Shown: one piece after another, positions 42,901 to 45,900 of the stretch
How the letters are laid out: each line of letters begins with the position of its first letter
Position numbering within the stretch: position 1 is the stretch's first letter
NCBI RefSeq assembly: GCF_003018115.1
Contig: NZ_CP027457.1
DNA length: 64,000 nt
DNA from: Escherichia coli
Lineage (GTDB): Bacteria; Pseudomonadota; Gammaproteobacteria; Enterobacterales; Enterobacteriaceae
Strand: one strand, 5' to 3'
Position numbers: made by a program

Positions 42901-45900
42901 TTAAGGAACGGTGAACATGAAAAGCAAAATCATCAGGGAGCTACAGGCTCCTTTTTTATTATTCGCATTTACCCTCAAGCGTATTAACCAACAATTCAGG
43001 GATTAATGAAAGATGGCAGACATCATTGATTCAGCATCAGAAATCGAAGAATTACAGCGCAATACAGCAATAAAAATGCGTCGTCTGAACTACCAGACTG
43101 TATCCGCAACTCATTGTTGTGAGTGTGGCGATCCGATAGATGAGCGAAGACGCCTGGCTGTTCAGGGTTGTCGGACTTGTGCAAGTTGCCAGGAGGAGAT
43201 CGAACTTAAGAACAAACAATGGGGACTGTGATGGCCTCAAAGCAGCAAATTTCAACATCATCCAACTGAGGTGTAAAAATGTTCAGAATCATTTTTCCTA
43301 ACACCTGGTACGTCGACCACCACGGCACTCCCTGCAAAATCCTGCGTTCTACCCACAACAAAGTTCACTACATCCGAAAAGGCAGAACATGTATCGCCAG
43401 CATGTTCCGCTTTAATCATGACTTTGAACCTGTGAATAAAGCTGATGCAGATCGGATAGCAGAAGAGATCGAAACGGCAGAACACATTAAGAAGTTACGT
43501 GACATGCGTTCAAAAAGCAGAGGTAACCATGGAATCATACAGCCTCACACTCGATGAGGCCTGTCAGTTTCTTAAGATATCCAGACCAACCGCCACCAAC
43601 TGGATACGAACAGGCCGCCTACAGGCAACACGTAAAGATCCAACCAAGCCAAAATCTCCTTACCTCACAACACGGCAAGCCTGCATTGCGGCGCTTCAGT
43701 CTCCGCTGCATACTGTCCAGGTGAGCGCGGGTGATGGCATAACAGAGGAAAGAAAATGTCACTCTTCCGCAGAAATGAAATATGGTATGCCTCGTATTCG
43801 CTCCCGGGCGGGAAACGAATTAAGGAATCTCTTGGCACAAAGGACAAGCGGCAAGCTCAGGAGTTGCACGACAAGCGAAAAGCAGAACTCTGGCGAGTAG
43901 AAAAGCTAGGGGATTTACCTGATGTCACTTTTGAAGAGGCCTGCCTAAGATGGCTTGAGGAAAAAGCTGATAAAAAATCTCTCGATTCAGATAAAAGCCG
44001 GATTGAGTTCTGGCTTGAACATTTTGAGGGTATAAGGCTTAAAGATATCTCGGAGGCAAAGATTTACTCTGCTGTAAGCAGAATGCATAACAGAAAGACG
44101 AAAGAAATATGGAAACAGAAAGTTCAGGCCGCCATCAGGAAAGGTAAAGAACCGCCTGTTTATGAACCAAAGCCAGTATCAACTCAGACAAAGGCAAAGC
44201 ATCTTGCCATGATAAAGGCCATTCTCCGTGCTGCAGAACGCGACTGGAAGTGGCTGGAAAAAGCGCCTGTCATCAAGATACCAGCGGTCAGAAACAAGCG
44301 AGTCAGATGGCTGGAAAAGGAGGAAGCAAAACGCCTTATTGATGAGTGCCCCGAACCACTGAAATCTGTCGTCAAGTTTGCGCTGGCAACTGGTCTGAGA
44401 AAGTCGAACATCATAAATCTGGAATGGCAACAAATCGACATGCAGCGACGAGTTGCCTGGGTGAATCCAGAAGAGAGCAAATCAAACCGCGCCATTGGCG
44501 TGGCGCTGAACGATACCGCCTGTAAAGTGTTGCGTGATCAAATAGGCAAGCATCACAAATGGGTGTTTGTACATACCAAGGCGGCTAAGCGAGCAGATGG
44601 AACATCAACGCCTGCGGTCAGGAAGATGCGCATCGACAGCAAGACATCATGGCTATCAGCTTGTCGTCGTGCAGGAATTGAAGATTTCCGTTTCCATGAC
44701 CTCAGACACACCTGGGCAAGCTGGCTGATTCAGTCAGGCGTCCCATTATCAGTGCTTCAGGAAATGGGCGGATGGGAGTCCATAGAAATGGTTCGTAGGT
44801 ATGCTCACCTTGCGCCTAATCATTTGACAGAGCATGCGAGGAAAATAGACGACATTTTTGGTGATAATGTCCCAAATATGTCCCACTCTGGAATTATGGA
44901 GGATATAAAGAAGGCGTAACTGATTGAATTGTAATGGCGCGCCCTGCAGGATTCGAACCTGCGGCCCACGACTTAGAAGGTCGTTGCTCTATCCAACTGA
45001 GCTAAGGGCGCGTTGATACCGCAATGCGGTGTAATCGCGTGAATTATACGGTCAACCCTTGCTGAGTCAATGGCTTTTGATCTGGTTGCTGAACAAGTGA
45101 ACGACCGCGTCTGATTTTCTGATTTATTTCGCTATAGCGGCAAACAAACGCACACCGCTGCGCGTCTGAATCAAGAAAACCCGTATTTTCATGTATCAAA
45201 GTACAATTTACCGCCCTAACGGAAAATTGTCCGCTCCTATGAGACTGGTAACTATGAAACCAACGTCGGTGATCATTATGGATACTCATCCTATCATCAG
45301 AATGTCTATTGAAGTTCTGTTGCAAAAAAACAGTGAATTGCAGATTGTCCTGAAAACGGATGATTACCGCATAACCATCGATTATCTCCGAACCCGTCCT
45401 GTTGATTTAATCATTATGGATATAGACTTGCCCGGAACAGACGGTTTTACCTTCCTGAAAAGGATCAAACAAATCCAGAGCACAGTGAAAGTGTTATTTT
45501 TATCATCGAAATCAGAATGCTTTTATGCTGGCAGAGCGATACAAGCTGGTGCTAACGGTTTTGTCAGTAAATGCAATGATCAGAATGATATTTTTCATGC
45601 CGTTCAGATGATCCTCTCCGGATACACGTTTTTTCCCAGCGAAACGCTTAACTATATAAAAAGCAATAAATGTAGTACGAATAGTTCAACGGTCACTGTG
45701 CTATCTAATCGTGAAGTGACCATATTACGTTATCTAGTTAGCGGATTATCTAATAAAGAAATTGCCGATAAGTTATTACTTAGCAATAAAACAGTTAGTG
45801 CGCATAAATCTAATATTTATGGCAAGCTAGGTTTGCATTCAATTGTAGAGCTTATCGACTACGCCAAATTATACGAATTAATATAATATTAATTATAATT

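Follow-up and report, generated by a model that had tools for sequence, protein, structure and literature searches.

A probable lambda Orf73 orthologue of the TraR/DksA zinc-finger family encoded in a likely argU prophage of Escherichia coli

The window analysed here, a stretch of 64,000 nucleotides, was taken from E. coli (assembly GCF_003018115.1, contig NZ_CP027457.1). The gene under study occupies positions 43013..43231 of the plus strand, stop codon included. It starts with ATG, codes for a TraR/DksA-family C4 zinc-finger protein of 72 amino acids, and is designated here as the orf73-type gene. A sequence-only reading of this DNA had proposed a 72-residue C4 zinc-finger protein at 43013-43231 between exo and xis; the ORF listing of the window yielded the same coordinates and the same motif, and the gene is indeed flanked by exo (41593-42273) upstream and by an excisionase-like HTH gene (43529-43900) downstream. 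Further upstream, likewise on the plus strand, gam (40509-40805) and bet/RecT (40811-41596) precede the exo/YqaJ gene. Between exo and the orf73-type gene lie orf60a/DUF1317 (42264-42452, plus strand), orf63/DUF1382 (42425-42622, plus strand) and a long orf61-type gene for 93 aa (42633-42914, plus strand). The downstream neighbour is a DUF4222 gene (43279-43557, plus strand); the HTH gene and a tyrosine integrase gene of the intD type (43756-44919, plus strand) complete the arrangement. All genes of the exo-xis-int block (41593..44919) are thus co-oriented on the plus strand. The sequence AGGGA at 42998..43002 (plus strand), 10 nt upstream of the ATG, may serve as the Shine-Dalgarno element of the orf73-type gene.

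Directly beyond the integrase gene, ARAGORN identified a tRNA-Arg gene (anticodon tct, argU) at 44935..45011 on the minus strand. Because this tRNA gene immediately follows an intD-type integrase gene, argU is the likely integration site. The tRNA gene is followed by fimZ, and across this junction the sequence is 99.8% identical to E. coli chromosomes whose annotation reads intD / tRNA-Arg / fimZ. Lambda-like genes of both arms are present in the window, namely J, the Gam/RecT/YqaJ set, an O-like replication gene and a cI-like repressor gene. The host element is a lambdoid prophage that was likely inserted at argU next to fimZ and carries its pL-type (leftward) genes on the plus strand. The two genes of unknown function that follow the repressor gene gave no defence-system matches in a PADLOC scan.

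The spacer between the orf61-type and the orf73-type gene contains a terminator-like element at 42935..42962 (plus strand), which was found by a pattern scan and consists of a hairpin (42935-42953; 8-bp stem, 3-nt loop) and a T-run. The hairpin has a minimum free energy of -10.2 kcal/mol with a z-score of only -1.6, which is marginally better than that of shuffled sequences. Hairpin and T-run are located about 60 nt upstream of the orf73-type gene and are identical in lambda. An assignment to the lambda terminator tL3 was considered and found no support in the literature search, where tL3 was mentioned only in passing. The tL3 terminator is located just downstream of exo. For these two reasons the hairpin is retained as an unnamed terminator-like element.

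Translation of 43013-43231 yields MADIIDSASEIEELQRNTAIKMRRLNYQTVSATHCCECGDPIDERRRLAVQGCRTCASCQEEIELKNKQWGL (72 aa). The protein contains six cysteines, at positions 35, 36, 38, 53, 56 and 59. Four of these (C35, C38, C56 and C59) form a canonical CxxC-17-CxxC zinc finger, in which 17 residues separate the two knuckles, and align with the cysteines of TraR. The first knuckle, C35-C36-E37-C38, is encoded at 43115..43126 (plus strand), corresponds to TraR C37/C40 and includes the additional, non-canonical C36. The second knuckle, C56-A57-S58-C59, was deduced from the cysteine positions and the alignment of homologues and lies at 43178..43189 (plus strand); the extra cysteine C53 (43169-43171, plus strand) precedes it by three residues. 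In the N-terminal helix, codons 3-8 (43019..43036, plus strand) specify D-I-I-D-S-A and thereby a DxxDxA motif. A HMMER alignment to TraR (5w1s_M) showed that the segment E44-R45-R46-R47-L48 (43142..43156, plus strand) is an ExxRL form of the ExxRK hallmark of TraR. R46 and R47 correspond to R48 and R49 of the aligned TraR segment E-A-R48-R49-K. The predicted C-terminal helix comprises residues 57-70 (43181..43222, plus strand; AF2 block pLDDT about 92-94) with E64. It is acidic and, according to the prediction, is the counterpart of the TraR helix in contact with betaSi1.

By its sequence profile, the 72-residue protein is assigned to the DksA/TraR C4 zinc-finger superfamily (PF01258). The HMM search for this family, which the sequence-only reading had suggested as a check, gave a match to Pfam PF01258 (zf-dskA_traR) over residues 33-64 with 37.3 bits (E 2.8e-9), above the gathering score of 24.9. 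PHROG 54, 'DksA-like zinc-finger protein', was matched over the full length (E 3.6e-26), and a chance resemblance can be dismissed. Sequence matches in the PDB were E. coli YbiI (2kgo) and F-plasmid TraR (5w1s, 6n57). The NCBIfam profile TIGR02419 (C4_traR_proteo) was matched end to end (protein 3-64, profile 1-64 of 64) with 53.9 bits (E 2e-14), which falls narrowly short of the curated cut-off of 59.7 but does not indicate a lack of similarity. Furthermore, traits of the TraR subfamily are present: the length of 72 residues falls in the expected range of about 70-75, and a single N-terminal helix takes the place of the DksA coiled coil. Orthology to F-plasmid TraR itself was rejected. The NCBIfam equivalog NF010268 reached 25.8 bits, far below its cut-off of 108, and the gene resides in a phage context and not in a tra operon. 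On account of this low score and the prophage location, the protein is regarded as a homologue of TraR and not as TraR itself. High identity and the position after orf60a-orf63-orf61 place it instead in the group of lambda Orf73 orthologues (PHROG 54).

An AF2 model built on the alignment of homologues has a mean pLDDT of 81 and contains helices at residues 8-27, 44-49 and 57-70. Block pLDDT values are at least 90 across residues 31-70 and 58-75 in the N-terminal third, where confidence is only moderate. The predicted architecture is accordingly that of an N-terminal helix, a globular C4 zinc-ribbon domain and a C-terminal helix. The best PDB match of the model in a Foldseek search was TraR in the cryo-EM complex with E. 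coli RNA polymerase (6n57_M; probability 1.00, TM 0.59, 71 alignment columns), followed by YbiI, TraR (5w1s), DksA2, and DksA in RNA polymerase complexes.

Conservation was assessed in an alignment of 47 sequences, comprising the 72-residue protein, lambda Orf73, 44 database homologues (61-94% identity) and F TraR. D3, D6, A8, C35 and E64 are invariant in all 47 sequences. C38, R46, R47, C56 and C59 are nearly invariant, with R46 occurring in 44 and R47 in 45 of the 47. C53 is found in 43 of the 47 aligned sequences and is a feature of the Orf73 subfamily; F TraR has a Val at this position. C36 is present in 17 of the 47. Hallmarks of TraR and Orf73, as given in PMC9239242 and PMC8614690, are a DxxDxA motif at the tip of the N-terminal helix, a C4 zinc site, an Arg pair and, in the C-terminal helix, an acidic residue. 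In TraR, the DxxDxA motif reaches the active-site region of RNA polymerase, R48 and R49 of TraR contact the rim helices and beta'Si3 (PMC9239242, PMC8614690), and its C-terminal helix contacts betaSi1 (PMC9239242). All of these hallmarks are kept in the window protein: DxxDxA at 3-8, the C4 site, R46/R47, ExxRL and the acidic C-terminal helix.

The closest characterized relative is lambda Orf73, which is identical to the window protein in 62 of 71 residues (87%). The lambda gene lies at 30392-30613 of the complementary strand of NC_001416, where the ORF is present though not annotated as a CDS. Both proteins share the same six cysteines, DxxDxA, ExxRL and R46/R47. Both genes occupy the same slot after orf60a-orf63-orf61 in the exo-xis block and follow a nearly identical spacer that includes the hairpin. 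Lambda Orf73 has 73 residues compared to 72 in the window, and the C-terminal tails read EEIELKNKQWGL in the window and EDLELISKQRGSK in lambda. Ten residues differ between the two proteins, and six of these fall within the last 11 positions, that is, in the putative betaSi1-contacting helix and the tail. At the DNA level, collinearity with lambda begins in orf63, extends across the spacer between orf61 and orf73 and covers most of orf73 itself, before homology stops within the last ~10 codons of the orf73-type gene. Downstream, lambda continues with ea22, ea8.5 and its own xis/int, whereas the window continues with the DUF4222 gene and an intD-type xis/int module. The break at the 3' end is an ordinary mosaic joint. 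Within the first 62 codons 12 differ from lambda, and seven of these 12 differences are synonymous, which fits a maintained coding sequence.

The gene is one allele of a mosaic phage module. Shigella phage SfI encodes a protein that is 100% identical to that of the window, and many Escherichia and Stx phages encode homologues with 87-99% identity. Relatives among phages include SfI, Turner, 2G7b, the Stx2-converting phage 86 and the Phi24B/933W group, and they show no difference of substance; their annotation is either 'DksA-like zinc-finger protein' or 'TraR/YbiI family protein'. Over the surrounding 1 kb, Turner and 2G7b agree with the window at 99.8-99.9%. In total, 514 phage records encode a relative. 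The 219-bp gene occurs in 3311 of 5426 complete E. coli genomes (~61%), and the 100% matches listed among these genomes are annotated 'TraR/DksA family transcriptional regulator'. A candidate for a second copy within the window, at 6831-7001 (plus strand), was detected by tblastn in six frames (E 4e-4) and was judged to be a chance match. It is Arg-rich with a CxC...CxxC pattern, lies antisense to the tail-tip J gene (six J-specific Pfam domains) and does not match PF01258.

Like F-plasmid TraR (5W1S, 6N57; about 72-73 residues), the window protein combines a single DxxDxA-bearing N-terminal helix with CxxC-17-CxxC, an RR pair and a C-terminal helix. However, identity to TraR is only ~30%, and the window gene belongs to a phage and not to a tra operon. 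DksA (1TJL, 5VSW, 7KHI) and YbiI (2KGO) possess the same zinc-ribbon domain (PF01258), and in DksA the acidic residues at the helix tip and the binding site in the secondary channel correspond as well. In contrast, DksA has 151 residues and a full coiled coil and requires ppGpp as a cofactor. Proteins of the TraR type are the counterpart of the C-terminal half of DksA and act alone.

The biochemical activity of lambda Orf73 has been characterized by Gopalkrishnan et al. (mBio 2022, PMC9239242). The protein competes with DksA for E. coli RNA polymerase at the same site that is used by DksA and TraR. No ppGpp is required for its inhibition of rrnB P1, for which the IC50 is about 50 nM, and of rpsT P2. 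Either of the exchanges D3N and D6N cripples the protein (PMC9239242). In vivo, lambda Orf73 complements a dksA-null strain, and its expression from pL lowers the levels of rrn leader and rpsT mRNA and slows host growth (PMC9239242). Expression of Orf73 in lambda is documented there by cited ribosome-profiling data. For TraR, the established structural mechanism is that the beta lobe/Si1 rotates, beta'Si3 is reoriented and the bridge helix is kinked.

Taken together, the window gene is very probably the orf73 orthologue of an argU lambdoid prophage, whose product would reprogram host RNA polymerase away from ribosome synthesis during lytic development. To judge from synteny with lambda, the gene would be transcribed with the early-left operon after inactivation of the repressor. 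As with F TraR and lambda Orf73, the N-terminal helix of the product would insert into the secondary channel of RNA polymerase and place DxxDxA near the active site; R46 and R47 would be in contact with the rim helices and beta'Si3, as would the C-terminal helix with betaSi1. The conformation of RNA polymerase would thus be altered without ppGpp and without DNA binding. Promoters with short-lived open complexes, such as those of rRNA and ribosomal-protein genes, would be inhibited, and host resources would be diverted from ribosome synthesis in lytic growth, leading to a higher phage yield. From the 87% identity to the lambda protein, we infer an equal activity of the window allele. The earlier proposal of a TraR/DksA-family secondary-channel binder that modulates host transcription agrees with the profiles, the predicted fold and the similarity to lambda Orf73, all of which point to such a role. 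Its further suggestion of a stringent-like response holds in one respect only: lambda Orf73 mimics DksA plus ppGpp, but it does so independently of ppGpp and triggers no stringent response. The effect of the window protein would most likely be of the same ppGpp-independent kind.

Other explanations differ from this one mainly in physiology and not in biochemistry, and the physiological outcome of Orf73 is disputed even for lambda. With the same biochemical activity, the main role of the protein could be to bias the decision between lysis and lysogeny towards lysogeny, rather than to raise lytic yield. Deletion assays in lambda and Phi24B, as summarised in PMC8614690, suggest that orf73 and ea22 are pro-lysogenic, and PMC9239242 acknowledges an earlier report that Orf73 lowers phage yield; this study, from another group and cited in both papers, reported a pro-lysogenic behaviour of orf73. 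Against this stands the finding that an in-frame deletion and the D3A/D6A mutants of orf73 in lambda lysogens result in a 3- to 4-fold lower yield upon treatment with mitomycin C; yield after induction is thus 3- to 4-fold higher with Orf73 (PMC9239242). The authors ascribe the discrepancy to different methods of orf73 inactivation and of lytic induction and state that their own mutations should be non-polar (PMC9239242). We consider the pro-lysogenic role unlikely. The sequence of the gene does not discriminate between the pro-lysogenic and the lytic-yield role.

Initiation of host chromosome replication has been discussed as another target. In lambda, the cluster orf73-ea22-ea8.5-orf55 is connected with the 'bin' phenotype, and PMC9239242 refers to earlier work in which orf73 and its neighbours were implicated in a block of host replication initiation. 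Such an effect could, for example, be exerted via the dnaA promoters, since high concentrations of lambda Orf73 inhibit dnaA P2 and P1 in vitro (PMC9239242). Yet the corresponding IC50 values of ~0.42 and 1.7 uM exceed the rrnB P1 value by a factor of ~10 or more, and dnaA mRNA is lowered weakly if at all in vivo (PMC9239242). Furthermore, the prophage has a DUF4222 gene directly downstream of orf73 instead of ea22. Replication initiation is therefore quite improbable as the main target.

The gene might also be a silent or decaying passenger of a defective prophage that has no current function, as argU prophages, for example DLP12 in K-12, are often defective. This is highly improbable, however: the ORF is intact with all functional residues kept, the core differences from lambda are largely synonymous, a full lambda-like gene set is present on both arms of the window, and identical or near-identical copies occur in the isolated phages SfI, Turner and 2G7b. 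Zinc fingers commonly bind DNA, and some phage records label homologues simply 'transcriptional regulator', which would fit a sequence-specific DNA-binding regulator of phage promoters. Such a role is scarcely conceivable, however: TraR and DksA act without DNA binding (PMC9239242), the lambda lytic promoters tested are unaffected by Orf73 (PMC9239242), and the best structural matches are all binders of the RNA polymerase secondary channel.

The gene family, its structure when bound to RNA polymerase and what the lambda orthologue does have all been published before, and the gene already receives its correct name from annotation pipelines. As a published and routinely annotated function, reprogramming of host transcription by an Orf73 orthologue matters little as a discovery. 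Its practical value lies in annotation, by which the prophage is marked as carrying a factor of this kind. Inhibition of rRNA and ribosomal-protein promoters without ppGpp, if exerted by the window protein as by that of lambda, would be relevant to burst size and to the induction of lambdoid phages including Stx-converting ones.

The zinc finger of DksA has been reported to function as a thiol/redox switch. By analogy, C53 and C36, the sixth cysteine, which is also present in lambda, could make the zinc domain of the orf73-type protein such a switch, an idea that is deduced from the cysteine pattern and that we regard as very doubtful. If it were true, the activity of Orf73 would be coupled to oxidative stress, which induces lambdoid and Stx prophages. 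Such a switch might also account for the finding that lambda Orf73 inhibits promoters but barely activates them; according to the authors of PMC9239242, the extra cysteines may affect the folding of Orf73 and its lack of promoter activation.

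Besides the four cysteines of the C4 site, the 72-aa TraR/DksA-family protein encoded by the orf73-type gene contains two additional cysteines, C36 and C53 (codons at window 43118-43120 and 43169-43171, respectively, + strand). In the alignment of the Orf73 subfamily, C53 is kept in 43 of the 47 members and C36 in 17; TraR of the F plasmid has neither of the two. The mosaic relationship with lambda breaks within the last approximately 10 codons of the gene (window 43190-43280), and the C-terminal tail of the protein therefore differs from that of its lambda counterpart. In lambda, ea22 directly follows orf73, whereas in this prophage the position is occupied by a DUF4222 gene, which is followed by an intD-type xis/int module. 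A putative second TraR-like copy was rejected. The translation of window 6831-7001 (+) is an Arg-rich peptide with a CxC...CxxC pattern that matched the TraR-like protein with a tblastn E-value of 4e-4. This stretch lies antisense to the tail-tip gene J, its translation gave no match to PF01258, and the similarity was judged to be due to chance.

Upstream of the orf73-type gene lies a "long" orf61 gene of 93 aa (window 42633-42914, +; PHROG 303). Compared to this gene, the lambda reference contains a single additional A within an A-run, which splits the same frame into two ORFs: orf61 with 61 aa, which is annotated, and one of 60 aa that lacks an annotation. Lambda orf61 therefore looks like a frameshifted form of the 93-aa gene. 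That lambda Orf61 is truncated relative to Stx phages has already been noted, and a homeodomain-like fold has been predicted for the long form (PMC8614690).

The orf61-orf73 spacer contains a terminator-like hairpin, AGGGAGCC...GGCTCCTT followed by T6 (window 42935-42962, +), which overlaps a 31-aa ORF at 42911-43006. Lambda carries the identical hairpin and T-run at this spacer. The folding energy of the hairpin in the window is only marginally better than that of shuffled sequences (z -1.6). The hairpin might limit read-through into orf73-xis-int in the absence of antitermination. A second terminator-like site of this type is located inside orf60a (window 42334-42356).

Between the rex-slot genes and gam (window 39372-40060, +), no ORF was clearly recognisable as an N-type antiterminator. 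The N-terminus of the ORF at 39650-40060 (+) is rich in Arg (KRTRERR), and its C-terminal part matches PHROG 294, which carries the annotation "Kil". The slot of rexA/rexB in lambda, directly downstream of the cI-like repressor gene (36949-37698), is here filled by two genes of unknown function that point in the same direction and code for 340 aa (37822-38844, +; PHROG 3482) and 168 aa (38866-39372, +; PHROG 16807). The 168-aa product contains hydrophobic stretches that resemble membrane-spanning segments. Pfam and PADLOC searches gave no match for either gene; the two are candidates for an exclusion or defence pair expressed in the lysogen.

The prophage further contains a Gram-negative porin gene (window 27369-28466, +; PF00267, E 1.8e-156), whose product is probably an NmpC/Lc-type porin of lysogenic conversion. 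Besides its argU-end tyrosine integrase, the prophage also harbours a large serine recombinase of about 507 aa (31903-33429, -) with Resolvase, Recombinase and Zn_ribbon_recom domains, which may represent an inserted element or constitute a second integration module.
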